This document shows positions 2,069 through 50,478 of a DNA stretch of 50,478 nt, one piece after another (position 1 is the first letter of the stretch; each line of letters begins with the position of its first letter). The position numbers and the translations under genes were made by a program. The stretch is from an uncultured Acetobacteraceae bacterium. GTDB taxonomy: Bacteria > Pseudomonadota > Alphaproteobacteria > Acetobacterales > Acetobacteraceae. The notes below the pieces were generated by a model. It saw only the letters and a program-made list of their open reading frames with translations. It did no database searches and had not been told where the DNA came from. Where the stretch lies: NCBI GenBank assembly GCA_964250775.1, contig CAXUHK010000001.1, positions 1 to 50,478 on the forward strand, in the 5' to 3' direction.

Positions 2069-2070
2069 CG

Positions 2071-6923: not shown

Positions 6924-6931
6924 CGGCGGCG

Positions 6932-7216
6932 TCAGCCGCCGCTGGCGGGCACGGCATCCCGCACCCGGGCGTGCGCCTCGCGGATCGCGGCGTCGACGCG
7001 GGCGGAGCTGGCAAAGGTTCCGCCGGCCTTGGCCGGTGGAATGCCAGCGGAGGGGGCGGTGTCAGGCTCGTTGGCGCGCATCCAGCCCATCTGCCCGCGC
7101 GTGCGGTCGATCGCGATGAACAGCTCGAACGGCGTGCCGATGCCGGCCAGCTCGGCCTCCAGGCGCCCGACCCAGCGCAGCATCGCGGGGTTGACGGTGC
7201 GGGAATTGGCGGTCAC
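6932..7216 (-). CDS. hypothetical protein
   Basis: GTG start. It is the first gene of the tightly packed minus-strand chain 7216->5308. Confidence 0.4.
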   Translation of the reverse strand: MTANSRTVNPAMLRWVGRLEAELAGIGTPFELFIAIDRTRGQMGWMRANEPDTAPSAGIPPAKAGGTFASSARVDAAIREAHARVRDAVPASGG

Positions 7217-7258
7217 GCGCCGAGTCTAGCGACGCCGGCTCCGATGCGTCAGCGCAAC

Positions 7259-7296
7259 GCCGGTCCTCGCGAGGGGCCGGCGTTTCGCGTTTCGGA
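7259..7296 (+). terminator. GC hairpin plus T-rich tail, copy A of a ~38-bp repeat
   Basis: The sequence is gccggtcctcgcgaggggccggcgtttcgcgtttcgga. It is nearly identical to 7874-7913. Confidence 0.4.
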
Positions 7297-7304
7297 GCAA
7301 TTCG

Positions 7305-7532
7305 TCAAGCCAGCAGGGCGCCGATGCGCTGCTCCACACCGGCCAGTACGGCCTGCCGCGCCCGCACCCGCCCCAGCACGTCTGCGATCACGCCGGACCT
7401 CGGCGTGTCGGTCCCCGCCACCCACCGCCGCATGGTCCGGTCACTGACGCCGATGTCGCGTGCCAAGTCGCTCTGCCAGCGAGGCCCGTAAAGGGCCTCG
7501 CCCGCCAGCGCCAAGGCTTCCCCGGCGGTCAC
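7305..7532 (-). CDS. small HTH-like protein (partner of the 7529..7744 membrane protein)
   Basis: The GTG at 7532 forms a GTGA overlap with the upstream stop. It is a paralog of 4760..4978. Confidence 0.5.
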   Translation of the reverse strand: MTAGEALALAGEALYGPRWQSDLARDIGVSDRTMRRWVAGTDTPRSGVIADVLGRVRARQAVLAGVEQRIGALLA

Positions 7533-7744
7533 AGCCAATGCCCTAGCGCGATCGCCGCCCCCGTGACGGCCACTCCCGCCGCTGCGCCGGCGGTCCAGAC
7601 CTGCCAAGGCAGGTAGCGCGCTTGCTGCTCCTTCAGAGCTGTGCCGGCCTGGAGGTTGGCGATTTTCAGCAGCTTTTCCGCCAGGTCCAGGATTGCGGCG
7701 TTGGTGCTGTCGAGAGTGGCTTGTGACATTGGAGCGGTCCCCAT
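7529..7744 (-). CDS. small coiled-coil protein with a C-terminal TM anchor (divergent IRYAP family)
   Basis: The C-terminal part reads ...QQARYLPWQVWTAGAAAGVAVTGAAIALGHWL. The architecture matches 5008..5211. Confidence 0.5.
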   Translation of the reverse strand: MGTAPMSQATLDSTNAAILDLAEKLLKIANLQAGTALKEQQARYLPWQVWTAGAAAGVAVTGAAIALGHWL

Positions 7745-7764
7745 CCGGGCGGGGCTGATCCCCT

Positions 7765-7792
7765 TCCCATGTCCTAATAATAGGACGTGGGA
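7765..7792. promoter_or_regulatory. 12-bp inverted repeat upstream of the 7744 start (candidate operator)
   Basis: The sequence is tcccatgtccta-ataa-taggacgtggga, with 11 of 12 positions complementary. It lies 21 bp upstream of the ATG. Confidence 0.35.
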
Positions 7793-7873
7793 GCACGGAT
7801 GTCAACTCGCCTTATGCTGCTTTCCTATTCCGCTCAGCCGCACAGGCCAACTCGCGAACGCGCCCCACGGAGA

Positions 7874-7913
7874 CCGGACCTCGCGAGGGGGCCGGCGTTT
7901 TGCGTTTCGGGAC
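7874..7913 (+). terminator. GC hairpin plus T-rich tail, copy B of the ~38-bp repeat
   Basis: The sequence is accggacctcgcgagggggccggcgttttgcgtttcggga. Confidence 0.4.
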
Positions 7914-8029
7914 TCCCGCTCGGGCTAGAAATCGGGGCTTTCGGACCGTTTGTGGCCAGGTGGCCATCCGGCCCCTGTGTCGATTGGCCATACGACGCAC
8001 GAGAAGCCAAGCAAAACCGGCCTTTTCGA

Positions 8030-8074
8030 TGGTCGGAGTAAGAGGATTCGAACCTCCGGCCCCTGCGTCCCGAA
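8030..8074 (-). tRNA. orphan 3' half of tRNA-Pro (anticodon CGG): anticodon loop to CCA, no 5' half (att remnant)
   Basis: The reverse complement reads TTCGGGA-CGCAG-GGGCC-GGAGG-TTCGAAT-CCTCT-TACTCCG-A-CCA. That gives a canonical T-arm, a U33/R37 anticodon loop with CGG, and an encoded CCA. It closely resembles the recalled E. coli tRNA-Pro(CGG) 3' half. Upstream GTGTG cannot pair with CGCAG, and no TACTCCG complement (5' acceptor) lies downstream. Confidence 0.7.
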
Positions 8075-8239
8075 CACACGGGCGATGCTGATTTTAAACG
8101 AAAAACCGTTTGTTTGTTGCGATTTCGGCGCGCATAACGCTTAAGCAGCGCATTCGATGCTGTTTTGCAACGGTCCATAAGGACTGTAGAGCACTGTTGC
8201 ATTGTTCGCCCATCGTTTTGACAAGCGAAACTTCAGCAA

Positions 8240-8599
8240 TCAGGCCGCCGGCACGACCTTCACGGCCGGCGCGGCGGCCAGCGTTAGTGCGTCCGCCTGC
8301 GCCTTGATCGAAGCGGCCAGTGCGTCAATGGCGGCGGCGTCGATAGTGGCGTCGTTCACGGCGAGCTGCGCCCGCGCCACGGCCGGGTCTACCGCCGCAG
8401 TGACCATGGCGACGGCCGTGGCAAGGCCGGGATCAGCCACGACCGCGACCTGAGCCAGCCCCTTCGCGACGCCGTAAAGCGTCAGGGCTGCCTGCAACCG
8501 GGTTTGAGCCTGCGACACAGTGGCGACGGTGGCGGTCTGCACCTGACCGGCGCACGCCGCCAGGGACAGCACCAAGGCGGCGACGGCTGGGCGGATCAC
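8240..8599 (-). CDS. lysis-cassette lipoprotein (intact)
   Basis: It has a GTGA overlap with the holin-like stop and the lipobox LSLAAC. It is a full-length homolog of pseudogene 3195..3566. Confidence 0.6.
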   Translation of the reverse strand: MIRPAVAALVLSLAACAGQVQTATVATVSQAQTRLQAALTLYGVAKGLAQVAVVADPGLATAVAMVTAAVDPAVARAQLAVNDATIDAAAIDALAASIKAQADALTLAAAPAVKVVPAA

Positions 8600-8973
8600 G
8601 GCTTGTCTCCTACGGCGGCAACGGGGATTGGCGCTGAGGCGGCTACGGCCGGCGGCAGCGCCTTGGCGTGGAACAGCCCGGTAATCGGGATCGAGGTCAC
8701 GGCGCGCATGGCGTAGGAGCCGACTAGCACGGCAACGCCCGCCACCAACGCGTCAACGTCCGGGCCCCAGCCAAGGCCGTAACGCGCGGCGGCGTAGGCT
8801 ACCACGGGCAGGAGCAGCGTGCCCCACGGCGTCTTGCTGGCAGCCAGCGACTTGCCGACGAACTGTTGCGCCAGCGTCGGGTTGACGACTTGCAGTTTGT
8901 CCACCAGGTCTGGCAGGCTCTTGGCCTCCCGAACGGCCACATCTTCGGCGGTGGCGACGGTGATCGCGGTCAT
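8596..8973 (-). CDS. holin-like two-TM membrane protein
   Basis: ATG at 8973, 8 nt after the endolysin stop, preceded by GGAGCC. It is a paralog of 2818..3198. Confidence 0.55.
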   Translation of the reverse strand: MTAITVATAEDVAVREAKSLPDLVDKLQVVNPTLAQQFVGKSLAASKTPWGTLLLPVVAYAAARYGLGWGPDVDALVAGVAVLVGSYAMRAVTSIPITGLFHAKALPPAVAASAPIPVAAVGDKP

Positions 8974-8981
8974 GCAGGCTC

Positions 8982-9521
8982 CTATGCAGTGGTGGAGTGG
9001 TTGGCGGCGTTGAACAGTTTCATGGCAGCCGTGAACCGGCGATCCGCTCGTGCCAGCCACCCCACGCCGAACGTGGCAAAATTGCCCATGACGCGGTATG
9101 CGTTGACGTGATCGTTATGAAGGATCGCCAGCAACAAAGCGTGGTTCGGGTATTTTGCAGCGGCGGCGGCCGTGACCGGACCAAGGCCGCCGTCCACCGT
9201 GACGCCAAGCCGGCGCTGTAGCTGCTTGACCGCCGTTCCGACGCCAGTGTTGACCGCCGCGTCGAACGTCAAAAGGTCAAGGCCAGGCCACAAGTCCCAG
9301 CCCCGCACGGGCTGCCAGTAGAGCGCGCGGTAGAGGGCTGAAACCAAATCCGCCGGCATGGCGCGCAAATCGGCCGGCGTGGCCTCGCGGTTCCAGTGCA
9401 GCAAGTCTGGCATGGTCAGCCCTGCCATAGTCGCGCCGCCGGGGTCGGCTGGGTTATCGGCCCAACCGCCCTCCTGGGCCAGCGTGAAGGCCAAGCACGG
9501 GTCGAACGGGTCTGTTGCCAT
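8982..9521 (-). CDS. endolysin, GH108 N-terminal domain plus PG_binding_3-like C-terminal domain
   Basis: Supporting segments are MATDPFDPCLAFTLAQEGGWADNPADPGGATMAG..., YRALYWQP and LQRRLGVTVDGGLGPVT. Confidence 0.85.
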   Translation of the reverse strand: MATDPFDPCLAFTLAQEGGWADNPADPGGATMAGLTMPDLLHWNREATPADLRAMPADLVSALYRALYWQPVRGWDLWPGLDLLTFDAAVNTGVGTAVKQLQRRLGVTVDGGLGPVTAAAAAKYPNHALLLAILHNDHVNAYRVMGNFATFGVGWLARADRRFTAAMKLFNAANHSTTA

Positions 9522-9557
9522 GCCCTATAGGAAGCACAGCCGAAACGTCTTTTCCCG

Positions 9558-9920
9558 TCAGGTTTGCGGCTTTAGCTCGTCCGGTATGCTGCCTGGAACC
9601 ATGAGGACGATCGGCTTGCCAATGCGCTCGAATACGATGCGCTCGGAGCCGATCTTGGCAGATTTTTCCCAGCCATCCGCCATAAGCAGGATCATGCCAT
9701 AGGCGGCGTCCATGAGCGGGCCGTCGAGAGAGAGCCATATAAGCTGCTTGGCGGGGTCTGTTTCCCAATCCGCCCCGACAGCGTGTGCATGAGCTACCGG
9801 GGAATAGATCGGGATACCTGCCCCAACCAAACGACTCGCCTCTCGACAAGCGAGGCGGAACGCGGCAGCCCGGCCGGGCGGGTGCTCGCGATAAGGGGAA
9901 CTCATATACCAATATGCCAT
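9558..9920 (-). CDS. DUF1937 (nucleoside 2-deoxyribosyltransferase-like fold) protein, copy 1
   Basis: The supporting pattern is YWYMSSPY...GIPIYSPVAHAHAV...WLSLDGPLMDAAYGMILLMADGWEKSAKIGSE. GGAG lies 6 nt before the ATG at 9920. An alternative start is at 9932. Confidence 0.65.
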   Translation of the reverse strand: MAYWYMSSPYREHPPGRAAAFRLACREASRLVGAGIPIYSPVAHAHAVGADWETDPAKQLIWLSLDGPLMDAAYGMILLMADGWEKSAKIGSERIVFERIGKPIVLMVPGSIPDELKPQT

Positions 9921-12659: not shown

Positions 12660-12970
12660 GGCTTAGCCTTGATTTGTTCCGCAATGTAGCCTAGTTGCGC
12701 CTCAATGCGTGTCAGCCGGTTGTCAATGCCGCCGACTAAATCACCTTGCGTGTTTAGCCGAGCGTCGTATAGCTCGCGGCGGTGGTAAACATCCGCCTTG
12801 AAGTCGTTGACTTGTGTTTGCAGACTGGCAACGGACGTGCTCAAGGAACCTACGTAAGCTGCCCCGGATGGGATCGCCAAAATGACAGCCGCGCACACGG
12901 CCACGACCAAAGACATGGGAAGGCGCACCCCGTTGTTAGCCTCGCCTGAATTTGACTGTTCCTGTGTCAT
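12656..12970 (-). CDS. N-terminal TM plus coiled-coil (i-spanin-like) protein
   Basis: The TM segment is MSLVVAVCAAVILAIP, followed by a coiled coil ...NRLTRIEAQLGYIAEQIKAKP. It is a paralog of 1460... The start could be 12970 or 12916. Confidence 0.5.
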   Translation of the reverse strand: MTQEQSNSGEANNGVRLPMSLVVAVCAAVILAIPSGAAYVGSLSTSVASLQTQVNDFKADVYHRRELYDARLNTQGDLVGGIDNRLTRIEAQLGYIAEQIKAKP

Positions 12971-13068
12971 GCCGCAATGATTGGCACAATTTTCGATCAC
13001 GTTCCCGGCATGAATTGATTTTGATTTATGGCCGTGGCATGAGGCTATTTGCAAGCAAGAGTGCGACC

Positions 13069-14100
13069 ATGAATAACCATGAAATTACAAAAATCGAGAA
13101 TGCTGCTAAAACAATTCAAAACCTTTTTAGGCAATTTGATAATAAAAACATTTTAGTCTCATTCTTGACAAAAGAAAAACTAGGACTTGCTTGCGATAAC
13201 CATTGGCGTTTTTCTATCCAGTCTGGCGTAAAAATTTTGCAAGTTCCAACCGGAATGGCTTTGGGTCAATTCAGTAACGCGACAGATGCTTTTAGCACAT
13301 TGGCAACATTGTGCTACACCTATCCCATGCGCACTGTCACAGATGGCGCGTGCGTAGTCGATTTTGAGGACGCCAGCGATCAAGGCGACTATTCCCGCAT
13401 AGCGTTCGGCGCTTCATGGGCTGCGGCGTCTCTTGTGGTTGACCCATACTACGTTAAGAGCCGTGGATACGCCGACTTGACCGCGCAGATATCGGCGTCT
13501 TGGCTACCGTGGGGGCGGCGAGAAGCCAAGGTGTTCTGGCGCGGCAGCACGACGGGCATTGCCGGCCGCGTCCCGCCAGCCCATTCCTTTAACTGGAAAT
13601 GGCTGCCCCGGCTGAACCTGTGTTGGGTCGCTTCTCAATCGTTGTTCGCGGATCGGCTCGACATCGGCATCACACAGCTTGCGCAAATGGACGCTCACGG
13701 ATGGCGTGTCAAAAACGACATTATTCAATCTGGCTTGATGCGTTCAGCGGTTTCTCGCCTGGATTTTATGCGGTACCGCTACCTTGTGGACATCGACGGC
13801 AACGCAAATGCATGGGATGGCCTGTTCGGCGCGATGCTGATGGGCGCTTGTATTCTCAAGGTCACATCGCCCCACGGCTGGCGGCAATGGTATTACGACC
13901 GTTTAATTCCCGGCGTGCATTTCCTGCCTGTTCGGCCCGACCTATCTAACTTTGACGAAGTTGTGCGTTGGGCGCTTGACCATGAAAGCGAATGTGCGGA
14001 AATGGGCCGCCGAGCGCGGCAATTCGCCACGTCCATGTTCTACAAAGACGAGCTTGACCTTTCCGGGGTCAAGCTCGCTCAATTGCTGACTAGTAGCTAA
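13069..14100 (+). CDS. GT90 (CAP10/LpsA-like) glycosyltransferase, AT-rich moron on the opposite strand
   Basis: Supporting segments are FWRGSTTG...YRYLVDIDGNANAWDGLFGAMLMGACILKV...WYYDRLIPGVHFLPVRPDLSNFDEVVRWALDHESE. The 5' part is visibly AT-rich. Alternative starts are at 13039 and 12952. Confidence 0.65.
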   Translation: MNNHEITKIENAAKTIQNLFRQFDNKNILVSFLTKEKLGLACDNHWRFSIQSGVKILQVPTGMALGQFSNATDAFSTLATLCYTYPMRTVTDGACVVDFEDASDQGDYSRIAFGASWAAASLVVDPYYVKSRGYADLTAQISASWLPWGRREAKVFWRGSTTGIAGRVPPAHSFNWKWLPRLNLCWVASQSLFADRLDIGITQLAQMDAHGWRVKNDIIQSGLMRSAVSRLDFMRYRYLVDIDGNANAWDGLFGAMLMGACILKVTSPHGWRQWYYDRLIPGVHFLPVRPDLSNFDEVVRWALDHESECAEMGRRARQFATSMFYKDELDLSGVKLAQLLTSS

Positions 14101-17100
14101 AGCAGGTTGTGGGGGACGTGCATGACGCGCGCAGGGTGGACCCTGCCGTGATCGCTACGCCCACCCCAGCGGCTCCGTTGTTCATCAGAGCGCCGTTGGG
14201 AGCATACAGAGTGATCGGCGCGCCGGTCGAGTTCGCCACCGTCTGCGGACGCGCAAGAAAGTTCATGCGGACGCCGCCGGTTCCCGACGTTATCAGGTTG
14301 ATGCTGCTCGCGAGTTGCTGCGCGGTCGCCTGGTTGGCGCCTGCCGCCGGGATTGTGAACGCCTGGTCAGTTGAAGCGTTCATCACAGGGTCGCGTTGGC
14401 ACGCCCCACCGTCGTTCAGAACGCCCACGATGGAAGCGGTGAGCGCCGTAGTCGGGTCCAGCGAAAGCGGTGCGCCGCTGCTGCTACAGCCCATGAGCAC
14501 GTTGGACATCGTAAGCTGCGCCCCGGCTCCGACCGTGACCTGGCTCCCCGGACCCTGCCAGCCGCCGCCAATAGCGCCACCGGCCCAATTGACTTTCATG
14601 CCCGAGCCAATCCGCGCATCCTGAAAAGTCACGCCACCGTCGTTGACGCCGCTAAACGTCATGATCGAGGTTTGGCCTTTGAGGTCCAAGGTCATGTCTT
14701 GGATTTGGCAGTTCGCCCCGGTCAGCGTCAGGTTGCTCACGAGGCCGAACGTCTTGATGCACTCCGAACGCCGCAGGTAGGCCGTCACAGCCGCCCCAGT
14801 GCCGCCCGTGACGCTGATAGCCGTCCCGGCGGCGCACGGGGAGCTGGTGGGCTTGCTAAGGGTGACGGTGCTGCCTGTGATGGTGCTCACGGTCGAACCG
14901 GAAGCGATGCACGATCCCGATACATTGGCGCGCTGGGCAACGTTAGCACCCGAAGCCAGAACCAAAGTTGCCGAAGTGGCACCTTGGGCGGTTCCCACGG
15001 TGGTTGAAGCGCCCGAATAGCTGTCGGTGACTGTCACTGTCGGGGATGCCAGGGGAGCCGGGGGAAACAGCGCCGTGGCTGGTCCATAGTTGGTCCAGTT
15101 GCCCGATGTCAGGGCGTCGACCGAATAGATGCCGGTCGAGGTCGTGTCGTTGACAACCGAAATCGTCTCGCCATTGTTCGGGGCGTCTGTCACAACGGGG
15201 CTGACGTATCCGGTGCCGGGATTTGTGACCACGTAGTCTAGGACGGCGGGGTTGTTCACTATCGGCGAGGCGCTGTTGTAGATCGGCCCGTCGCCGCCGG
15301 CGTTGACAATTACGCCCGCGTCACCGTGAAAAGAGTATTTGACGCCGCAGCCGTAGCAGAATGGGCGAATTATGGTGATGCCGGAACCTCCGTCGCGGTC
15401 AACGATGAAGTTTCCCGGTCGGTAAGACACATCAATTCCGTTGTAGCCATACTCGCCAGACCAAAAAGCATTTGCATCCGGGCTATCGATTACTCCTAGA
15501 TCGTAATCGTTCGCGATGTCAATACCGTTCCAATCATCAAAAATTACGTGGTCAATCTTAGGGCGGTCTGAATGGGAGTTGATGCCTGTGCGAAACCCGA
15601 CAACGCCGACGTTCGCCAGCGTGGCGTCCTTTCCCATCGACACCCCCACACCCGCCCCCGAATACATGGTGGCGATCTGCGTTAAAACATTCATGCCCAC
15701 TACGGGAAGAGACGGGACGTTGCCGGCGACCACATAAATGTTTCGCAGCCCGCCGCCAGCGCCTGCCGAAAGGGTGACAGGCCCCGATGAGTTGCCGAGC
15801 ACAATGGTGGTGCCCTGCGGTGGCGCAAAGCCGCCTTGTAGGACGCCGCAGCTTACTCCCGCTGTCTGGTTTATGTTCTGCACCGATCCCGCAAGCTGGC
15901 CGGGGCCGCTCACAAACCAGCCGCCAGTTCCCAACATGCTGCCGTTGCCGGTGGCCTGGATACCAAGGCCGAAGCTGTTCCCGGTGGTTGAAGCGGTTTT
16001 GTAGGTGACTTCAAGCTGCCACCGGGCAGTGTTGTCCGTCATTTGGTTGGCGTTCCAAGCGCCCGTTTTATAGGTCGCTTGGGTGATGTTCGGATCGGAC
16101 GATCCCTGAAGAAACGCCAACAGGTTTGCAGCAAACGCCTGCATGGTGCTGCCGATTGTAACCTGGTAAGGATCGGCTGTTGTGCCCGCGTGAGTGCCGC
16201 TGGCCGACGCCACAAAAGAAACGACGGCTCCACCAGTGATCGCCCCAGCGTGCCCGTAGTAGCCGCTGGGTTGCGGAAAGCTGCACACGCCTCCGATGGT
16301 GATAGCGTCGCCAACCGCCGGAAGGTTGCTGTTCCAAACGCGCCCCGCCGCGAACGCCATAGCGGAGTTCCACGAATGCCCAAACCTCAGTCCGCGCACT
16401 TGCCCTTCGAGACCGTCAATGGTCCATTGCGGAGGAAGCGCAGGCGCAGTGGCGAACACAAAAACGTCTGCGCCGGGGTGAAGCGGAACAAGCGTGACGG
16501 TTTTGTTGGCATACGCAGGATTGCTTGCCAGAGCGGTTAAAGCGGAAGCGTTATCAGTGACCCCGTCCCCCACAAATCCAACTGATTGCATGACCACGCG
16601 AACGGCTGCGTTGTCGGCTTCCGAAACTGCCACAGTTGCGTTTGTGGGGGTCACTGTAAGGGCGGAACCCGAGCCGGCAAAGGACGACGCCGACATCGCG
16701 CCGGGAATGGTCGTGCCCGTAGGGGTCGAAATCAGGAACGGCGTGCCGCTGGTAGGAGAACCTGAACTATTGCGAAACGTGACGTTCCCGCCGCTGGCAA
16801 TTCCGAATTCGCCGGGAAGTAAGTTAAGGCCGTAGCTCCCCGGCGCGCCAAGGTTGCCGTAAAACGACACGCGAGCACCAAGCGCATCTGAAAAACGAAT
16901 GCCGGCAAACGATGGGGTTATCGAACCATCGGCCATGTGCGCCTGCGTTTGCGCAAGCGCCTCATTGGCTCGCGCCGTAGAGGCTTCGGCAGTCAATGCT
17001 GTTTGCTGGGCAGCTCCTACAATCCGAGCGTCGTTCCCGGTTGCAAGCGTTCCTGCCGATGTGCCCCCCAACGCCGCCGCTACCTGTGCCGCAGTTGGTG

Positions 17101-41030: not shown

Positions 41031-41166
41031 TTCTATACACGCAACGCTGAGCGCCGGATAGTGGGGAAGCGTGATTATATTTTGTGGATGTCAAGCAAAA
41101 TTATGGGGTCTTTGTGCATCCAAACAAACATCTGTCGCGTAACGAGCGCATAACTCACAAATGTTT

Positions 41167-41254
41167 ACATTTCTGCCGTTGTGTCTTTAGAAGCGACGTG
41201 TCACAAACGCTGCACGGCGGGGCGATAGTGCAAAGCCGAGACAAGGCTACTCCA
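41167..41254 (+). promoter_or_regulatory. conserved promoter/leader cassette, copy U1
   Basis: ACATTT lies 29 bp before ACGTGTCACAAA (41196-41207), followed by GGCGGGGCGAT and GCAAAGCC. The candidate -35 is TTGTGT (41179-84) and the candidate -10 is CACAAA (41202-07), 17 bp apart. Confidence 0.5.
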
Positions 41255-42042: not shown

Positions 42043-42194
42043 CGATCACTACGGAACCTGCGCGCGTGCGGGCGTGCGGGGGAACAACGTTCAGTTGACA
42101 ATGTTCAGTTGAACATGCGCCGGCAGTTATACCAAGTTTAGCCCATCCGGCATAAACCTGGTATAACTCACACTCGACCCGGTTTACCCGCGAC

Positions 42195-42722: not shown

Positions 42723-42802
42723 TGCCGCCGTGGTTGCCACACCCCACCACGCCATTCCCGGCACGATCCGCGCGGACGCCATTTGTCATACATTCCGGTG
42801 GA

Positions 42803-43316
42803 AAAACTCATTCCTAACTCATCCCTAACTCGTTTCCAAATTGGGTTAGGATTGAGTTACGTAGTTAGATCAACGATTTAACCCCATAAAACCAACTCAA
42901 TTCTCATTCCTTACGCGAACTTAAAAGCTGGCCGAAGCCTTTTTCTTATATAAGTTTATGTAATAGATGTGCTTACCCGTCTCTTCCTCTATATATAAGG
43001 AAAAGCGGACCTGCGCGTATGTAATTTTCACGAGTATCGTGAAAATGGATTTTAGCACGAGCTTACTACGGTCGCACCGTATTTCACCCGGATGAGCATT
43101 GCTTACGACGAAACTGGGAAGGCTGTCAACTACGCATCACGTTGATCTGCGGGAGGGATCGCGAGGTTGAGTTTGAGTAGGTTTGAGATCGAGTGTGGGA
43201 ACTTGGCAAGGAATGAGAATTGAGTTTATTTTTGGGGTTAAACCTTTGACAAATATAAGAAACTCAGAAATACGTGGTTCAGGAATGAGTCTAGGAATGA
43301 GTTAGGAATGAGTTTT
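42803..43316. repeat. AT-rich non-coding locus with nested, concentric inverted iteron arrays (candidate origin or looped operator)
   Basis: The outer arms are 42803-42837 and 43281-43316, each with three AGGAATGAGTT-type units at 11-12 bp phasing. The inner arms are 42875-42912 and 43208-43244, with a perfect 18-nt core. A 10-bp palindrome lies at 43024-43046. Only 16-17 codon ORFs occur inside. Confidence 0.8.
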
Positions 43317-43344
43317 GCGGAGCCCGGAACCGCTACATAGGTTG

Positions 43345-43433
43345 ACAATTCTGTTGTTGCTTCCTTCGCATTTACGTGTCACAAACTTGCTCACGGCGGG
43401 GCGATCAAGCCAAGCCGATCGGAGTGACGGACG
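43345..43433 (+). promoter_or_regulatory. conserved promoter/leader cassette, copy U3
   Basis: TTGACAATT..TGTTGC lies 29 bp before ACGTGTCACAAA (43374-43385), followed by GGCGGGGCGAT and GCCAAGCC. Confidence 0.5.
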
Positions 43434-43745
43434 ATGAGCTACTTCACCGACGACTGCTTGGCTCGCGCTGTGGCCGAGATGGCTACGGTCGAGGCCGGCG
43501 CTCGCGCGGCTTTGACGCTGGCGGTTGCGCTGGCGGAGCAGCAGATGGCGGCTTTGCAGGCGGTAGACGGCTTGGACATGGAGGACGCGATTGCCTCGGT
43601 CGATAGCAACCTGTCCGATTTGCGCGACCATCTCGCCAACCTGTCTGAGCGGTGCGACGGCCGGGTGGAGTCGTTGGCTCAGGATTACGAGGATTTGAGC
43701 GGCGGCACTTATGCCGACTGGCATCGCGACCAGGCGTATGCGTGA
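43434..43745 (+). CDS. hypothetical protein (starts MSYF)
   Basis: The ATG lies 60 nt after the box. It is 103 aa, acidic and helical. Confidence 0.5.
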   Translation: MSYFTDDCLARAVAEMATVEAGARAALTLAVALAEQQMAALQAVDGLDMEDAIASVDSNLSDLRDHLANLSERCDGRVESLAQDYEDLSGGTYADWHRDQAYA

Positions 43746-43900
43746 TGTCGGGCAACATGCAGCCGGGGGAGCAAGCCCCCAAGGACACACCCACGGCGGT
43801 TCAGCCTGATTTGGTGGCGGTGGACGTTCCCGATGACGGCGAGGTCGTCTACGGCGATCTACAGCGCTTGGAAGCGTTCGGATGGGAGCGGGACCAATGA
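43745..43900 (+). CDS. 51-aa hypothetical protein
   Basis: It has a TGATG overlap upstream and an ATGA overlap downstream. Confidence 0.35.
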   Translation: MSGNMQPGEQAPKDTPTAVQPDLVAVDVPDDGEVVYGDLQRLEAFGWERDQ

Positions 43901-44121
43901 GGGTCGATTACGTTTGCGCCACCAGCAACTCGCGGTGGTTTACCGCTGGGCGAACCTACACCGCGTATGAGATGGCCGGGCAGGTGATGATGCTGAACGA
44001 CAACGGCACGCCCTGGCCGACGGCGGAGGTCGTGCTCGAAGGCCAAGCGACGTTCAACCCGGCTGGCCTCGCGCCGCGCCGTTGGAGCACGCGGCTGCGA
44101 CAACTGGCCGGGGTGCGCTGA
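43897..44121 (+). CDS. hypothetical protein, paralog of 39242..39505
   Basis: The translation is MRVDYVCATSNSRWFTAGRTYTAYEMAGQVMMLNDNGTPWPTAEVVLEGQATFNP... Confidence 0.5.
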   Translation: MRVDYVCATSNSRWFTAGRTYTAYEMAGQVMMLNDNGTPWPTAEVVLEGQATFNPAGLAPRRWSTRLRQLAGVR

Positions 44122-44131
44122 ACCAAAGTCA

Positions 44132-44216
44132 ACAATTTTTCTGTTGCGTCGGAAGATGCGACGTGTCACAAAAATGGGGCAGGGCGACTATGCCAGGCGA
44201 CAAAAGGTGCAAGCCA
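44132..44216 (+). promoter_or_regulatory. conserved promoter/leader cassette, copy U4
   Basis: ACAATTTTTCTGTTGC lies 29 bp before ACGTGTCACAAA (44161-44172), followed by GCAGGGCGACTA and GCCAGGC. Confidence 0.5.
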
Positions 44217-44372
44217 ATGACTGAGTTCAACATTAAGCCGGCTGACCTCGCGGCGTGCCGGCGCTATTACGCCCAGCGGCACCGCACGGCGGTGACTAAG
44301 GCCCTAGCGTTCTGGATGCGCGCTGCGGCGGACCGTGCCGACGTGGCGGATGAAATGGAAGTTTGCTCGTGA
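44217..44372 (+). CDS. 51-aa hypothetical protein (starts MTEF)
   Basis: The ATG lies 56 nt after the box. Confidence 0.4.
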   Translation: MTEFNIKPADLAACRRYYAQRHRTAVTKALAFWMRAAADRADVADEMEVCS

Positions 44373-44566
44373 CCACAACTCCCCGCCCAACTCCGGCCGA
44401 GCGCGCTCGCAAGTCGCGGGCGGCGCTGCGCAAGCGGACGATCGAGCTGCGCGGCGAGGCGTTTGACTTGCTGGCGCGGGTGATGGAGCGGGACGGCGAC
44501 GCGAGTCTGGTGGCGGCGGCGACGCGGGCGATCTTGCAGGCGTGGAAGGTGGGAGGTCGGGTGTGA
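44369..44566 (+). CDS. hypothetical basic protein
   Basis: It has a GTGA overlap with the upstream stop. It is 65 aa. Confidence 0.4.
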   Translation: MTTTPRPTPAERARKSRAALRKRTIELRGEAFDLLARVMERDGDASLVAAATRAILQAWKVGGRV

Positions 44567-44814
44567 GTTACCACAAGCCGGTGACGACGCTTGCTGAACT
44601 AGACACGCTGGACGAAGCGGAGATGCGCGCTGGTTATTGTTCGGCAGAGCGCGGAGACATTGAGCCAGGTGGCAACCATTCGCGGTCGTTCCATCACGGC
44701 TGGCGCACGCGGATGATGGATTTGCATGAAATACCGATACCGTTAGAGCATCGGAGACTCGTGCATGAATGGGCGCATCGGAATCAAAAAGCTCGCAAAC
44801 CATTATCCGCTTAA
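44563..44814 (+). CDS. small protein with an Rmf/CrpP-like motif, paralog of 45957..46175
   Basis: GYCSAERGDIEPGGNHSRSFHHGWRTRMMD compares with GYRDGFDLSSPEPSENRSHSYRHGFANGRDD. The GY..G...P...R/S..W/Y..GW pattern recalls RMF. The assignment is weak. Confidence 0.4.
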   Translation: MSYHKPVTTLAELDTLDEAEMRAGYCSAERGDIEPGGNHSRSFHHGWRTRMMDLHEIPIPLEHRRLVHEWAHRNQKARKPLSA

Positions 44815-44963
44815 ACGCCGCAGCAGTGCGCGAGCAACTGCGCCAGGCAATTCGGGCTGGCGGCGAAATTTGCGGTATTATGTAGCAAGCACACCAAGCG
44901 CCTGCTCCCGCCAACCCATTGATTAGATTACAATGATTGCCCTCCACAGACAAGGGCGATCCG

Positions 44964-45290
44964 ATGACCGACTACGTGCTTGCGGGCCTCACGAAGCGCC
45001 GCGCCGAGTTGGCCGGTGAGGCTGAAACCCTCCGCGCCAGGCTCGCGCAGATCGCGACCGACACGGGCCACCTTGACGCTGTGATCCAGCAGTTTGATCC
45101 CGACTACGACCTGGGCAGCATCCGGCCCAAGCGCCCGCGTATGCAGGACGCGGCAGGACGTAGAGGACCGCCGGCTCGTGAAGCTGACCATGAAGCGCGT
45201 GGGTATGGCGTTCAGTCGGCAGAAGGCGACAGGAACGGTGCGGGCGATCCAGGGGCCGGGCCGGTTACGCTTTGGGAGGTGGCGGGGTGA
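44964..45290 (+). pseudogene. hypothetical regulator-like protein, possibly carrying two compensating frameshifts
   Basis: The N-terminal helix (MTDYVLAGLTKRRAELAGEAETLRARLAQI...) and the C-terminal ...GPVTLWEVAG are in one frame. The more protein-like middle (RLVKLTMKRVGMAFSRQKATGTVRAIQGPG) is in the frame of ORF 45094..45363. Confidence 0.3.
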
Positions 45291-45391
45291 GCTGGGCGGC
45301 TTTTGGCCGATTGCCCTAGATCGTATAGACTGCAAATCAGACGCTATTCGGTCTAAGCGGTAACCAGCAAAAACTATTTTATAACAGTGGG

Positions 45392-45586
45392 TTAACTTAG
45401 AACATGAGCAAAGCGGTCACCGCCTATCAGGATGTATGCCGTTCTAACTGCCAAGCAGTCACCTTGGCACTGGTCTCCTGGACCGTCGCAATACTCGCCA
45501 TCACTCGCCTCGCACATATCGCGAGCACGTTCAGCGATGGCGGGCGGCACGGGAAGGCGTCCAGCGGTGGTTTTCTCACCTGACAT
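45392..45586 (-). CDS. Cys-rich small hypothetical protein
   Basis: The ATG at 45586 overlaps the upstream ORF by 11 nt. Confidence 0.35.
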   Translation of the reverse strand: MSGEKTTAGRLPVPPAIAERARDMCEASDGEYCDGPGDQCQGDCLAVRTAYILIGGDRFAHVLS

Positions 45587-45749
45587 TGACTGGCTCCTGC
45601 GACAGCAAGTCGACGATGGAATGCGCGGCGGTAGCCCACTGTGACAACCGGCCATCAACATAGGCTTTGGGCAACTCCTGGAGCAGACCGCGTAGCAATC
45701 TTTCGGCTCCCAGCATCATGTCAGGATTAATGGCGGTGGTTTTGGTCAT
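45576..45749 (-). CDS. 57-aa hypothetical protein
   Basis: My own translation is MTKTTAINPDMMLGAERLLRGLLQELPKAYVDGRLSQWATAAHSIVDLLSQEPVNVR. It has an ATGA overlap with the upstream stop. Confidence 0.35.
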   Translation of the reverse strand: MTKTTAINPDMMLGAERLLRGLLQELPKAYVDGRLSQWATAAHSIVDLLSQEPVNVR

Positions 45750-45967
45750 GGCTGCACCTGCTTCTCAATGTGATCGAGCATTCGTCGCATGTCGGAAATG
45801 AAACGCATGGCAGGTTCGCGTCCGATTGCTTCGCCCGGCGCGTCAATGAAAAACGACATCGAAGTGTCCGCCGACCACGTTGCGGCTTTCTGCGCGAGCC
45901 GGGCTGTGTAGCCGGCAAACTGCCCGTTGGTCAGCGGCTTTGCGGTGGTTTTAGGATCAGCGGGCAT
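45746..45967 (-). CDS. hypothetical protein
   Basis: It has an ATG start and is 73 aa. It lies in the minus-strand operon 46830->45392. Confidence 0.45.
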   Translation of the reverse strand: MPADPKTTAKPLTNGQFAGYTARLAQKAATWSADTSMSFFIDAPGEAIGREPAMRFISDMRRMLDHIEKQVQP

Positions 45968-46175
45968 CGTCGGCCTCCATCGCTAGATGCGCTATATTCA
46001 CCAATTCGGCGTAAGATGCCCGAGGCTTCCTGGCGCGGTCGTCTCGCCCGTTCGCAAAGCCATGCCGATAGCTGTGCGATCGGTTCTCGGACGGCTCGGG
46101 AGAGGACAGGTCAAACCCATCTCTGTAGCCCTGAACCATGTCCGCGTTGGCTGGACGGGTAGTTTCAGTTGGCAT
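45957..46175 (-). CDS. small protein with an Rmf/CrpP-like motif
   Basis: ATG at 46175. See 44563..44814 for the shared motif. Confidence 0.4.
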   Translation of the reverse strand: MPTETTRPANADMVQGYRDGFDLSSPEPSENRSHSYRHGFANGRDDRARKPRASYAELVNIAHLAMEADDAR

Positions 46176-46830
46176 TGTGCAGCTCCTTCTTGCGTGCGCG
46201 AGCCGCTGACCGGCCCGCCTCACGGTTGATTTCAGTCTGGTAAGCCCGCTGGCGGTCGGGCCGGCGCCCTAACTCGCGGCGCGCAATTTCGGGCGACATC
46301 GGCACGCCCTTGCGAGGTCCAGCCCGCATCAGAAGCGCCGATGTCGGATGCTCGCGGGATGACTTCGGCCAGTCGTCGGCAATCAGCGCGGCGCGGCGCT
46401 TGGTGTCGGCCAACGTCTCTGCTGCCAGTTCCTCTTTCGTCCGCCCCTTTCCGCCGCGCCTCACGACCCGCCCAAAGGCGGCAATTGCCTCGGCAATGAC
46501 GGCGGGCGGGGCGTCCGGGGCAATCGTCTGGCCCGTGTCGAGGGCGTGCAGCACAGCGCCCCGAGTGGATGCCTTGACGATGACGCCAGCGAAATCTTGC
46601 ACGGAGAAGGCGAGGCAACGGAACGTTGCCACGGTGATCCGCTCGGGAATCTGCCGGGACGTGGGGGCGAGCATGGCAGAGCGGTCCGTCATCCCGGAGG
46701 CGTTGCAGTTCTTGATCGCACGCGCAGGCAAGATGTCCTGATAGACCGGCGAGCGGTTGCCTAGGACGGCTTGCTGCCGCTCGATGGGCCAAGCCGCGCA
46801 GATGTTCGAGAGATAGGCTTTTTTTATCAT
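46165..46830 (-). CDS. degenerate serine-recombinase (resolvase-fold)-like protein
   Basis: MIKKAYLSNI...ERQQ...VYQD...ERITVATFRCLAFSVQDFAGVIVKASTRGAVLHALDTG loosely tracks the resolvase catalytic-domain pattern. It has a basic C-terminus. The assignment is by eye only. Confidence 0.35.
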   Translation of the reverse strand: MIKKAYLSNICAAWPIERQQAVLGNRSPVYQDILPARAIKNCNASGMTDRSAMLAPTSRQIPERITVATFRCLAFSVQDFAGVIVKASTRGAVLHALDTGQTIAPDAPPAVIAEAIAAFGRVVRRGGKGRTKEELAAETLADTKRRAALIADDWPKSSREHPTSALLMRAGPRKGVPMSPEIARRELGRRPDRQRAYQTEINREAGRSAARARKKELHNAN

Positions 46831-46873
46831 GGAGGCGTGTATAGCGAGATGTGCAAGTGCTTGCAACACGCGC

Positions 46874-46901
46874 TTGCAAGCGGCCTTGGATTGTGCATAA
46901 T
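46874..46901 (+). promoter_or_regulatory. sigma70-like promoter for 46929..47102
   Basis: TTGCAA (46874-79), a 16-bp spacer, then CATAAT (46896-901). TTGCAA palindromes are repeated just upstream. Confidence 0.45.
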
Positions 46902-46928
46902 GGCTGCACGAACACCGGAGACGCACAG

Positions 46929-47102
46929 ATGACAGACGTGGAGATCACCGAGCGTCTTGCCCACATCGAGCAGATGCAGGCTGACCGCGACCGCAAGCGC
47001 CAGGAAATCCGCTATGCGCCTTGGGCGCTCGTGCTGTCCGGCATGACATCTGGCGCGGCGCTATTCGCGGCCGGCGCGGCGTTCGTCAAGCTGTTCCCGT
47101 AA
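46929..47102 (+). CDS. small coiled-coil protein with a C-terminal TM anchor (IRYAP family)
   Basis: The translation is MTDVEITERLAHIEQMQADRDRKRQEIRYAPWALVLSGMTSGAALFAAGAAFVKLFP. Confidence 0.55.
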   Translation: MTDVEITERLAHIEQMQADRDRKRQEIRYAPWALVLSGMTSGAALFAAGAAFVKLFP

Positions 47103-47126
47103 ACTCCAGCCAGGAGCATCCAGAAA

Positions 47127-47363
47127 ATGCAGACCCTTGAACAGGCGTTGGCCGAGCGGCAGGCGATCCAGCACTATCAGGACACGGTGATGTCTTTCGC
47201 CGCCTACCTTCGCAGCAAGGGCCAGATCGCCCACGAGCGCGACGACAGCGTGTTGGAGCGCGTGGCGCATAAGGGCTGCAAGGGCGTGTATCGCGTCTGG
47301 ACGTTCGACGCTGACGGCGCCGCCGAGGCGCAGTCGCCGCTCGTTACCGGCCTGCCGCGCTAA
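47127..47363 (+). CDS. hypothetical protein
   Basis: It has an ATG start and is 78 aa. Confidence 0.45.
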   Translation: MQTLEQALAERQAIQHYQDTVMSFAAYLRSKGQIAHERDDSVLERVAHKGCKGVYRVWTFDADGAAEAQSPLVTGLPR

Positions 47364-47390
47364 GCGGCATCAAACCCCAAGAGGCCAGTC

Positions 47391-47681
47391 ATGGCAAAAA
47401 TCGTTTACAATGCTTGTTATGGCGGCTTTGGTCTTAGTGCCGAGGCCGAAAAGAGATACGCCGAGATCAAAGGCATTCCCAAGTGCCCGTATGACAGAGA
47501 CATCCCCCGCAACGACGCCGCTCTCGTTCAGGTAGTCGAGGAGATGGGGGATAGCGCCAGCGGTGACTGCGCCAAACTGCGCATCTACGAATTGCCGGAT
47601 GGCTTGCATTACCGGATCGACGAGTATGACGGAATAGAATCGGTCATGACCAGGAACGACTACGACTGGTCCGTAGCGTAA
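47391..47681 (+). CDS. hypothetical protein (YNACYGGFGLS N-terminal motif common in phage small proteins)
   Basis: It has an ATG start and is 96 aa. The RBS context aaaccccaagagg is repeated before the next ORF. Confidence 0.5.
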   Translation: MAKIVYNACYGGFGLSAEAEKRYAEIKGIPKCPYDRDIPRNDAALVQVVEEMGDSASGDCAKLRIYELPDGLHYRIDEYDGIESVMTRNDYDWSVA

Positions 47682-47710
47682 AGCCTAACAAACCCCAAAA
47701 GGAACCTGAC

Positions 47711-47857
47711 ATGCAACGAGCAGCATTAGCCGGCACTGTTTGTGGCGGAGGCGCAGTAGGCTTTTGGCTTACGGGGGCGCCTTTAGTTGTGGGGATTACC
47801 GGGCTCTTACTGCTGTCCGTCGGGTTGGTGACAACCTTAGCCGCAACACGCGGCTAA
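47711..47857 (+). CDS. 48-aa membrane micro-protein
   Basis: The translation is MQRAALAGTVCGGGAVGFWLTGAPLVVGITGLLLLSVGLVTTLAATRG. The upstream context is aaaccccaaaagg. Confidence 0.35.
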   Translation: MQRAALAGTVCGGGAVGFWLTGAPLVVGITGLLLLSVGLVTTLAATRG

Positions 47858-47888
47858 CCAGTCAACTTTAACCCCAATTAACGCTGCC

Positions 47889-47919
47889 AACGCCCCGGCC
47901 TCAAACCGGGGCGTTTTGC
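47889..47919. terminator. bidirectional intrinsic terminator between convergent genes
   Basis: It has a perfect 10-bp stem, aacgccccgg / ccggggcgtt, with a 7-nt loop and a following ttgct. Confidence 0.65.
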
Positions 47920-47926: not shown

Positions 47927-50272
47927 TCAATCAACCCCTTCCGGCTTGTCATTGTAAATCTCGTAATACGTGATAGGCCGCTGCTTGCTCGGCGATTTTT
48001 CGTGGATTTTCACGACCTGATTGCTTTCAATTAGCATTTGCAGAGCGTCATCCCGCTCCGCCGGTTTCATCGTCTGCACCTTTTTCGACAGCTCCGAAAG
48101 CGTGACCCGTCCGCCGCTATCCGCGATGATGCCCAGCACCTTCTTGGTGCGCGCTTGGACCGGCGTGTCACTCGCCTTGCGCTCGGCCTCCACCAGCATC
48201 GTGTCGATGCAGTGCTGCACCAAGTCGCGCGCCCACTCGAAGTCTGCCATCTCGATCACCGGGCGAGCCGGGCAGCGCGACACCGCTGCGATAAGCGCGA
48301 CCTTAATCGTGTGCTCAAGCTGGCGGGCGAACACTGCCGTCGAATACTCGCCCTGGTGGCTGCGCAAAACGGCGGTGATCTCGCAGTCGAAAGCGCGGAT
48401 GGCGTTCGCTACGCCGATCCCGTAGGGCACGGGGTAGGCTTTCATCTCTGTGGTGGCGGAGAACAGCTCGGCCAGATCGCCGCCGTAGTCGTGCCTTTCC
48501 GCACCGCGCGCTATAGCCTGAAGCGTTGCCACCATGTCGAGAGGCGCGGCCACGTCATCGGGCATGGGGTTGGTGTCGGGATAGTGAACATCAGTTACGA
48601 ACACGAGAAACCGTGCCAAGCTGCCGTCCGACATAGCTCCGCCTTCGACCGCTTTCCAGAGCGGGCCGGGAACGGTGGTGCCCCAAATGCAAGCGTTCGG
48701 CTGGCGAATGTCCACGCGCGGGCGGCCTCCCGACGCCGACTGGTTGGCGTATTCAGCCCCGATCAGCGTCTCGCCCGCACTGGTAAACAGTTTCGTCATC
48801 ATGGTCAGCACGCCGGCCATCCGCTCCGAAACGTGCTCGCCGGTCATGGTCGCCAAAAACTTGCCGAACTCATCGATTTGGTAGACCCGAGCTGGGTGCA
48901 TTTCGAGCGAGGTCAGCAAGCCAGGCGCGGACGGCAATCCCTCGCCGCCAACCCATTTGTCGAGACCGGCCGCAAAAAGCAGCTCCTTGGCGCACCGCCG
49001 CGCGTTGTCTTTGCCGCCGCCGCTGTCTGCTACGCCGATCCCAAAAAAGTTGGTCCGCAGACCGGATGGGCTTTTGTAGCACCTTCCCGCCACCGCTCCC
49101 AACAAAGCGAGCGCCGCTCCCACTGCCAGAAACGGCTGCGGGCTTTTTGCGGTGCGATCGGCAAAGCGCACAAAGTCGCCAAGGAAGCCGGTTTGCGGGA
49201 TCAAGTGCGCCGGGACGTAGTAGCCGGGCATCGAACGCGGAGCGGCGTCAGGTTCAATCGTGGCGGCTTCGCGGGGCATGTTGGCGATGCGTTCAAGGAA
49301 CGCCGCCGCCGGGTGTGGTTCGCCTGCCATCTCGGCGTCAGTGCCGTTCAACACCAAATCACGCGCCGGCCGCCAGCCCTGTTGCTCGGCCAGCCAGTAG
49401 ATCGTCCCGGCCCCCATGCTGCGCGGGCGCAAGGTGGCCCACAGCTCGCGCGTGCGGGCCGGATCGTTCTTGGTTGACCATGCCGACCAATCCTCGAACA
49501 GAGAAAGGCCAGCATCGCCCAGCGCGCCCTTGAGGCCCATGCCGACGCGAAACCAGTCATCCCAATGCAAATCGGCGTTCGGGATATGGTTCAAGGCCGA
49601 CTGAATTGCCTCCATGGTGCCGCGCGGATCGGACGGGCCTCGCCATGCCGACTGCTCCAGGGAGGCTGTCAGGGACGCCTGGCGCTGGTCATCCGGTAGC
49701 ATCTCCCACGCGGCCTGTAAAAACGCCGCCACGCCCTCTTGTGTGACCATGGGCAGGCTGGTGATGTCTGTGTTGGCCGGGTGGCTGTCAGGCCAATCGT
49801 AGGGCCTCTGTGTAGTCGGGTGTATGGCAGCGGCCACAAACTGCTGCCCATGGCACAAGGCCTCGATCGGGTGACGCTTGACGCCAGGGAACGGCCGATC
49901 AGTGCGATAGACCAGCAGCGCTTTGGGTGCGAGGCCGATGCGAATGAGCGGCGTGTCGCCAAGCATCCGAAGTGCTAAGTTGCGCAGACGGATGGACAGT
50001 TCCGGGTCGAGCACGTCGATGTCGATGCCGCAGACGTTGCCGCACGCGATGCCGATGCCGGCTCCGATCCACTTCTTCCACTGCATCAGCTCAAACGGCT
50101 TGGCTTCCCGGTCACAGTAGCGTTGCCATTCCGGCAAGTCCTGCCATTCGTCGAATTGGCAACGCTGCGGCTTCTTGGTGCCAGGTCCGATTGGCAAGAT
50201 GTGATAGCCGGCCGATAGCATCGCGTCCGCGTGGCGCTCCATGAAGCCGACTGACACTGAGCTATTCTCCAT
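47927..50272 (-). CDS. replication protein: prim-pol N-terminal domain, PriCT-2-like region, DUF3987 helicase-like domain and a C-terminal wHTH-like tail
   Basis: Supporting segments are AGYHILPIGPGTKKP...GIGIACGNVCGIDIDV (prim-pol), DWFRVGMGLKGALGDAGLSLFEDWSAWS (PriCT-2) and FLGDFVRFADRTAKSPQPFLAVGAALALLGAVAG...GVADSGGGKD (DUF3987). The ATG at 50272 overlaps the upstream ORF. Confidence 0.8.
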   Translation of the reverse strand: MENSSVSVGFMERHADAMLSAGYHILPIGPGTKKPQRCQFDEWQDLPEWQRYCDREAKPFELMQWKKWIGAGIGIACGNVCGIDIDVLDPELSIRLRNLALRMLGDTPLIRIGLAPKALLVYRTDRPFPGVKRHPIEALCHGQQFVAAAIHPTTQRPYDWPDSHPANTDITSLPMVTQEGVAAFLQAAWEMLPDDQRQASLTASLEQSAWRGPSDPRGTMEAIQSALNHIPNADLHWDDWFRVGMGLKGALGDAGLSLFEDWSAWSTKNDPARTRELWATLRPRSMGAGTIYWLAEQQGWRPARDLVLNGTDAEMAGEPHPAAAFLERIANMPREAATIEPDAAPRSMPGYYVPAHLIPQTGFLGDFVRFADRTAKSPQPFLAVGAALALLGAVAGRCYKSPSGLRTNFFGIGVADSGGGKDNARRCAKELLFAAGLDKWVGGEGLPSAPGLLTSLEMHPARVYQIDEFGKFLATMTGEHVSERMAGVLTMMTKLFTSAGETLIGAEYANQSASGGRPRVDIRQPNACIWGTTVPGPLWKAVEGGAMSDGSLARFLVFVTDVHYPDTNPMPDDVAAPLDMVATLQAIARGAERHDYGGDLAELFSATTEMKAYPVPYGIGVANAIRAFDCEITAVLRSHQGEYSTAVFARQLEHTIKVALIAAVSRCPARPVIEMADFEWARDLVQHCIDTMLVEAERKASDTPVQARTKKVLGIIADSGGRVTLSELSKKVQTMKPAERDDALQMLIESNQVVKIHEKSPSKQRPITYYEIYNDKPEGVD

Positions 50273-50404: not shown

Positions 50405-50478
50405 CCCCGGCCCCCCCCCCCCCCCCCGCCCCCCCCCCCCCCCCGGGGGGGGGGCGCGGAGTAGGGGGGGGGGCCCCC
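50405..50478. other. G/C homopolymer-rich low-complexity contig end
   Basis: It consists of long C runs followed by G runs with no coding signal. Confidence 0.6.

Follow-up and report, generated by a model that had tools for sequence, protein, structure and literature searches.

The window analysed here, a stretch of 50,478 nucleotides from an uncultured Acetobacteraceae bacterium, carries at 42803-43316 a block of 514 bp in which short repeat units form two mirror-image arms around an AT-rich centre. With confidence a little better than even, we regard this block as a phage replication origin, i.e. the cis site for the phage's own primase-polymerase (prim-pol)/helicase, a protein of 776 amino acids encoded at the right edge of the window on the minus strand. 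The dyad and its iterated units, first described in a sequence-only reading that was made without database searches, are confirmed: the block is the lowest-GC stretch of its size in the window (0.41 vs 0.634), in line with that reading, which had called it AT-rich, and the repeat units, the 18-nt core and the extra units at 42848-58 and 43163-43200 were all found where it had placed them. The non-coding stretch around the block actually spans 42723-43433. From left to right, the block is composed of the following features.

42805-15, 42816-26 and 42827-37, minus strand: left outer array of three tandem 11-bp units, AGGAATGAGTT, AGGGATGAGTT and GGAAACGAGTT, at 11-bp phasing
42848..42858, plus strand: left opposite-facing unit, AGGATTGAGTT
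42869..42886, minus strand: left arm module, TGGGGTTAAA-TCG-TTGAT
42894..42911, minus strand: left inner pair of overlapping units, exact 18-mer AGGAATGAGAATTGAGTT
42912..43207, no strand: centre of 295 bp, with no structured RNA and no credible open reading frame (ORF)
43163..43200, plus strand: degenerate forward units GTTGAGT, TTGAGTAGG, TTTGAGAT and CGAGTG, on the right side only, with the purine-rich GGGAGGGA ahead of them
43209..43226, plus strand: right inner 18-mer, an exact copy of AGGAATGAGAATTGAGTT
43233..43250, plus strand: right arm module, TGGGGTTAAA-CCT-TTGAC, with an AT-rich tract (GC about 0.30) behind it
43257..43266, minus strand: right opposite-facing unit, TGAGTTTCTT
43281-91, 43293-303 and 43304-14, plus strand: right outer array, AGGAATGAGTC, AGGAATGAGTT and AGGAATGAGTT, at 12- and 11-bp phasing

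The repeats had been read as two concentric layers, of which the shared midpoint at 43059.5 holds, while the separate layers turn out to be a single pair of imperfect inverted arms of about 110 bp each (42803-42912 and 43208-43316). Aligned with each other, the arms are identical in 79 of 110 columns with one indel, and this identity is modular: proceeding from the centre to the outside, the 18-mer (19/19 identical), TGGGGTTAAA (10/10), TTGA, the opposite-facing AACTCA unit (6/6) and the three 11-mers are kept, whereas the two longer spacers show roughly random identity. This pattern is more suggestive of binding sites under selection than of a recent duplication. In both arms, the module placed between the outer and the inner units agrees by eye with eight of the nine positions of the consensus for integration host factor (IHF), the left one when read on the plus strand (GATCAACGATTTA). 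The centre is asymmetric, its left part being the AT-richest (42920-43050, GC 0.28-0.47) and its right part, with a GC content of about 0.5, ending in the degenerate forward units. Within it lie an inverted repeat, with its halves at 42939-52 and 42992-43005, and the perfect 10-bp palindrome (43024-33 / 43037-46) which had been counted as part of the concentric arrangement; the palindrome exists, but its centre at 43035 lies 24.5 bp away from the midpoint of the arms.

The clustering of these elements stands out from the rest of the window. The unit AGGAATGAGTT, with up to two mismatches, occurs 14 times in the window, including 10 times in the block, compared with 5.5 +/- 2.3 matches (maximum 11) in shuffled sequences, and TGAGTT is found 21 times, nine of them in the block (shuffles, 11.8 +/- 3.3). 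At the dyad centre (43056-61), 33 inverted 7-mer pairs coincide, while the next-best centre reaches 10 if the poly-G/C ends of the window are excluded, and the block treated as folded single-stranded DNA scores z = -7.0 against shuffles. The units point outward: the left half has one TGAG against four CTCA, whereas in the right half nine TGAG stand against one CTCA (Fisher p = 0.017). Coding potential is not apparent: the statement that only ORFs of 16-17 codons exist was mistaken, since ORFs of 40-45 codons are present, but none of them looks coding, no codon-position GC signal is detectable in the block, and the 45-aa ORF found one marginal low-identity match among 1.8 billion proteins. Sites for CtrA, LexA (alpha type) or full DnaA boxes do not occur in the block, and there is one GANTC site.

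The proposed initiator combines the domains expected of a protein acting at such a site.

47927..50257, minus strand: candidate initiator gene (776 aa), Prim-Pol, PriCT_2, DUF3987 / MCM-ORC-like ATPase and C-terminal winged helix

The Prim-Pol and PriCT_2 domains score above the Pfam cut-offs and DUF3987, for which a role as a helicase of mobile elements has been predicted (PMC5862659), below them (E = 0.0044). A search of the protein sequence against solved structures detected no similarity, whereas a structural comparison of its AlphaFold2 model (predicted local distance difference test score 86) by Foldseek matches the N-terminus with the prim-pol domain of pRN1 ORF904 and the ATPase with MCM, ORC and Cdc6 chains. 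Residues 699-767 are modelled as three helices followed by a beta-hairpin, that is, as a winged helix behind the MCM/ORC-like ATPase, in agreement with the winged helix-turn-helix tail postulated from the sequence. A profile of the protein family weakly matches RPC6-type winged helices over residues 689-754 (E = 0.15). As modelled, the domain layout is that of PriRep of the Staphylococcus aureus pathogenicity islands (SaPI) and of pRN1 ORF904. The genome thus encodes a candidate initiator with a helicase domain and a (modelled) winged helix, and short units facing opposite ways flank an AT-rich stretch, both of which are hallmarks of the iteron origins of self-loading primase-helicases.

The best 120 database matches of the prim-pol protein are mostly near full length. 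Many of these relatives, with 42-51% identity, are encoded in prophages that have been assigned to Roseomonas, Elioraea, Falsiroseomonas and further Alphaproteobacteria, and a single one at 68% identity lies on a short contig; cultured phages reach at most 33% identity, and at most 25% over most of the protein. We took 86 relative loci, 72 of which hold at least 300 bp past the prim-pol stop, and searched them for a strict array pattern of at least two TCAA units 7-10 bp apart, a gap of 40-100 bp and at least two TTGA units. Such an array, with two or three units of each type, follows directly 3' of the prim-pol stop in 45 of the 72 relatives, compared with none of 1309 control windows from the same loci. 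The layout consists of a left array, a spacer that is GC-rich and closes with a purine run, a right array, an AT-rich tract and outlying units, and its compact form comprises three plus three core units at 8-9 bp phasing with a spacer of 42-64 bp. TCAA and TTGA are invariant, while the next three positions vary by phage (TTGAAGAG, ATTGAAT, TTGATGA, TTGACG, TTGAAAT, TTGAGGAAT). Changes at these three flanking positions affect both sides together in 11, 15 and 12 out of 30 sequences, indicating that the two arrays of each phage evolve in concert, and the co-varying arrays look like co-evolving protein-binding sites or a conserved hairpin. Four of the loci serve as examples.

L097, 8318-8433: array
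L112, 8360-8479: array
L090 (51% identity), 14236-14460: array with TTGAG(G/A)ATA units, 1.9 kb further downstream, with other genes following prim-pol
L134, 4960-5215: array with units of the types TTGAGGAAT / TTGAGAGAT

The arrays of the relatives always precede a DUF6456 gene. No DUF6456 homologue is present in the window, and prim-pol is the only gene adjoining these arrays that also turned up there. Their position and co-variation, together with the precedents discussed below, make them a candidate family-wide origin. We found no published description of these TCAA/TTGA arrays, and no rule connecting the winged helix to the iteron sequence is evident at a glance, no dedicated attempt having been made. 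Two further strong dyads, both in relatives without the canonical pattern, were set aside: that of L151 is a GC-rich terminator, and the one at 11130-11300 of L147, about 3 kb downstream of prim-pol, consists of inverted arrays of unrelated GTACCACC-type units.

The proposed association of the block with the prim-pol gene rests on a further copy of the arm module. The window contains exactly three copies of TGGGGTTAAA-N1-3-TTGAY (0.00 in shuffles), one in each arm and one behind prim-pol, at the spot where the relatives carry their arrays, and 940 kb of the relatives' loci contain none.

47861..47876, minus strand (the prim-pol sense strand): third module copy, TGGGGTTAAA-G-TTGAC, 51 bp 3' of the prim-pol stop

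The variable spacing in this third copy argues against one rigid site. An array is not found directly behind the prim-pol stop of the window, where a terminator hairpin and convergent plus-strand genes are present instead; this perfect, GC-rich 10-bp hairpin at 47889-47915 (AACGCCCCGG / CCGGGGCGTT), accompanied by a T run, probably terminates transcription in both directions, from the prim-pol gene as well as from the convergent genes. The arrays of the relatives and the block appear to accompany the same protein family and to face outward; in both, the right array has an AT-rich tract at its side and is preceded by a run rich in purines. In orientation and unit type the block agrees with L090 and L134, which also use TTGAG units; its units share GGAAT and TGAG blocks with those of L134, and the element of L090 is likewise displaced from the gene. 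The left inner 18-mer is followed by TACGCG, and the left arrays of the relatives by CACGCG.

Several known replication systems offer precedents for such an arrangement. SaPI origins carry iterons on either side of an AT-rich region, which point in opposite directions and are read by the winged helix of Rep (PMC9371898). The block shares with them the short units flanking an AT-rich stretch in opposite orientations and a helicase initiator with a C-terminal winged helix, which is sometimes fused to a primase, as in PriRep5 (PMC9371898), and the loading of a pair of hexamers, one at either side, that is thought to take place in SaPIs (PMC9371898) may be likened to what we propose for the block. 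The SaPI iterons differ in measuring 5-6 bp, numbering 6-12 and lying immediately downstream of rep, compared with at least 14 units of 7-11 bp in two tiers over 514 bp, 4.6 kb away from the gene; moreover, the helicase domain is DUF3987 in the window protein and DUF927 in SaPIs (PMC5862659). In pRN1 and BIP-1, the origin is a large inverted repeat located 3' of the gene for a prim-pol/helicase/winged-helix protein (PMC4234260). Their initiators likewise join prim-pol (plus PriCT_2 in BIP-1), helicase and winged helix, and the prim-pol domain of the window protein matches the structure of ORF904. The pRN1 origin differs in being a 100-nt stem-loop without iterons which adjoins its gene, whereas the arms of the block are made of iterated units around a centre of 295 bp. 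Phage P4 needs two cis sites, ori and crr, which lie several kb apart and share the same iteron. They recall the block plus the module copy behind prim-pol, for which a second-site function is a candidate role. P4 alpha also unites primase, helicase and a winged-helix origin-binding domain in one protein that reads origin repeats (PMC4234260), but its primase is of the bacterial Toprim type and not a prim-pol (PMC4234260), and its iteron sequence and layout are unrelated to the block.

For binding, melting and initiation, we infer the following course of events. The C-terminal winged helix of the 776-aa protein would read the short TGAG/TTGA-type units pointing outward in both arms, the phasing at one helical turn would set the protomers along one face of the DNA, and a bending factor or extra protomers may occupy the TGGGGTTAAA-TTGAY / IHF-like module that separates the outer from the inner units. 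Two helicase rings would then self-assemble, one per arm, an AT-rich tract would melt, the candidates being 42920-43050 and 43227-43275, the prim-pol domain would prime, and forks would depart both ways. With respect to its history, the block may be a derived, symmetric and enlarged form of the compact array located behind the gene in the relatives; a 4.6-kb cassette of mostly opposite-strand genes would now separate it from prim-pol, with one module left at the old position.

A number of observations weigh against an origin function. With respect to sequence, the block resembles the arrays of the relatives in kind only: the strict TCAA/TTGA pattern is absent from both strands of the window, nhmmer and blastn yielded no match between these arrays and the block, and gapped local alignments gave z values of -1.3 to 0.84. 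The synteny expected in related prophages is seen for inverted arrays next to prim-pol, while the block itself was not found there. The dimensions differ as well, the block having two-tier arms of 110 bp with inner arms separated by 295 bp and outer units at 11-bp phasing, compared with about 42-75 bp and 8-9 bp in the relatives, and TTGA is present in only some of its units, the others reading ATGAG. Whereas iteron origins of this kind follow directly behind the gene of their initiator, a distance of 4.6 kb separates the block from the prim-pol stop; note that adjacency to the gene is not essential for the pRN1 origin, which is functional when moved elsewhere on the replicon (PMC4234260). The best DnaA box found is TTTTCCAC, and the minimum of the cumulative GC skew, which falls at 42-43 kb and would suit an origin, is accounted for just as well by the change in transcription direction occurring there. 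The location between divergent genes, the promoter-like site on the right inner arm and the outer triplet upstream of 43335 would suit a purely regulatory site equally well. Finally, the arrays of the relatives lend support only as far as their own candidate role as origins holds.

A regulatory function has to be judged from the immediate neighbourhood of the block. To its left lies the gene for a RuvC-like resolvase (phrog_1770) on the minus strand, which probably starts at 42722, in line with its homologues spanning only about 80% of the long RuvC ORF. To the right, a promoter-plus-leader unit of about 85 nt (43335-43418) precedes an orphan gene at 43434, which places the early plus-strand promoter outside of the block. 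This unit is one of three paralogous copies on the plus strand (41157-41239, 43335-43418 and 44122-44205), which share a TTGACA-like -35 element, the invariant ACGTGTCACAAA and a small conserved hairpin (GGC-GGGCGA...GCC-GCC), followed by an ATG at a fixed distance (about 41255, 43434 and 44217). Each of them heads a small plus-strand cassette opposing the main minus-strand direction, and they found no match in viral contigs.

A regulatory nucleoprotein site without any role in replication, the strongest competing interpretation, appears rather unlikely to us, although it fits the location of the block between divergently oriented genes: a phage or host protein bound to the phased units would loop or wrap the DNA and thereby switch the promoters of the RuvC-like gene (leftward) and of the plus-strand cassette (rightward). 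A promoter-like site (TTGGCA-18-TATTTT, 43203-43232) indeed spans the right inner 18-mer, which makes up its spacer, the -35-like TTGACA in the promoter unit at 43335 follows 27 bp downstream of the right outer triplet, an ATGACA is found on the left 15 bp beyond the outer triplet (offset by about one helical turn relative to the right side), and two HTH_3 proteins are encoded nearby. Such proteins normally read palindromes, though, and the sole palindrome here is single-copy. Moreover, the other two promoter units (41157 and 44122) lack any repeat units, and at least 14 units across 514 bp are far above the usual need of promoter control. The arm module behind the prim-pol stop and the parallel with the gene-linked arrays of the relatives would be left unexplained as well. 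A regulatory role is in any case compatible with an origin function and does not exclude it.

The third module copy also allows a more elaborate variant of the origin, a bipartite one on an invertible segment, which we consider improbable. The right-arm module (43233-43250, plus strand) and the copy at 47861-47876 (minus strand) form inverted repeats flanking the 4.6-kb cassette 43251-47860, and either both of these distant cis sites would be needed, or the phage would switch between two configurations of origin and early genes. Inversion of the cassette would put a full arm (module, AT tract and three 11-mers), the promoter unit and the cassette genes behind prim-pol in a co-directional arrangement, and the resulting order of prim-pol, array, promoter and co-directional genes would match that of the relatives.

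It is very unlikely that the block is a non-autonomous element of the miniature inverted-repeat transposable element (MITE) type, i.e. an insertion into a divergent intergenic region with 110-bp terminal inverted repeats containing several transposase-binding sites. The block is indeed a discrete 514-bp unit with long terminal inverted repeats, and its removal would bring the RuvC start to within about 98 bp of the promoter unit, a distance resembling the 126 bp found at the promoter paralogue at 41157. The ends of DDE transposons typically show 5'-TG / CA-3' termini, but the block lacks these, and its flanks (GGTGGA and GCGGAG) contain no target-site duplication. The mismatches between the arms are concentrated in the spacers, which points to old, selected sites and not to a young insertion. 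A second copy was found neither in the window nor in the phage, plasmid, viral, genome and metagenome collections searched: the block DNA and the region of 38-50.5 kb gave no match to phage and plasmid records, a scan of viral contigs yielded no exact 22-mer match, exact-pattern scans with the 18-mer yielded two matches, both by chance within coding sequence, and a two-unit pattern retrieved 84 loci from genome and metagenome contigs, all of which are unrelated tandem repeats without an inverted partner. Using the flanking genes as anchors gave no related block either, since the RuvC homologues (at most 52% identity) lie in unrelated contexts and the gene at 43434 is an orphan.

Even less credence is given to a partition (centromere-like) site of a plasmid-prophage or to an attP with arm-type integrase sites. 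Units phased at the helical turn recall parC of plasmid R1, three contiguous arm-type sites recall P'1-P'3 of lambda, and the lack of an integrase in the window fits an episomal lifestyle. On the other hand, none of the scanned ORFs of the window encodes a ParA/ParB/ParM/ParR-type, integrase or recombinase domain, although such genes could lie beyond the window, because the source contig (68 kb) is longer. For attP in particular, the relatives employ large serine recombinases, for which arm sites are not required, no tRNA, tRNA fragment or tRNA-like core was found at the block, and mirror-symmetric arms are not the layout of an attP. The suggestion of a pair of OL/OR-like operators around an immunity RNA found no support: the centre folds no better than shuffled sequences on either strand (z = 0.22 and -0.84), no Rfam match is found in the region even at E = 5, and the operator-sized palindrome has no second copy in the window.

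The remainder of the window consists of a myovirus-type structural module on the minus strand, including an Sf6-like TerS, TerL, portal, P22-like coat, sheath and baseplate proteins, with a lysis gene (GH108 lysin). A low-GC (0.44) gene for a family-90 glycosyltransferase at 12952-14100 on the plus strand, opposite to the surrounding minus-strand tail module, looks like a moron, perhaps serving surface modification. The convergent intergenic stretch at 42043-42194, between a helix-turn-helix gene and the RuvC stop, holds the GC-rich gcgggcgtgcggggga, which agrees with the spacer of L097 in 18/19 positions, two GTTCAGTTGA units (42089-98 and 42103-12) at a distance of 14 bp and a hairpin (TTATACCAAGTTTA / TAAACCTGGTATAA); the stretch could be the remnant half of an array of the relatives' type, but the likeness is not significant (E = 0.03 by blastn, uncorrected for multiple testing, and E = 9.9 by nhmmer). 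At 1-9900, the GC content amounts to 0.65-0.74 (above 0.68 across 1 to 8 kb), compared with about 0.62 elsewhere, a second GH108 lysin region (1888-3198, plus strand) shares about 75% identity with the inversely oriented lysis genes at 8648-9512 (minus strand), and an exact 217-bp tandem duplication is found (2208-2424 / 2425-2641). The remnant of a second prophage or a chimera of the assembly could account for this region. The ends of the window (1-55 and 50409-50478) are poly-G/poly-C runs, which look low-quality or artefactual, and the prim-pol protein is recorded on a contig of 68,176 bp, so the window may belong to a longer or differently assembled record.

Replication proteins of the prim-pol/DUF3987 type are common in alphaproteobacterial prophages, and we found no defined origin for them in the literature. 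If the block were only regulatory, it would represent an ordinary, though unusually elaborate intergenic region. If it is an origin, the candidate family-wide origin with its co-varying inverted TTGA iterons would provide a system for studying how winged helices read iterons, and the block would represent a variant in which the origin has left its gene, doubled in size and gained a second tier phased at the helical turn. One protein and a DNA of a few hundred base pairs would then suffice for direct tests of origin recognition, helicase self-loading and origin mobility.

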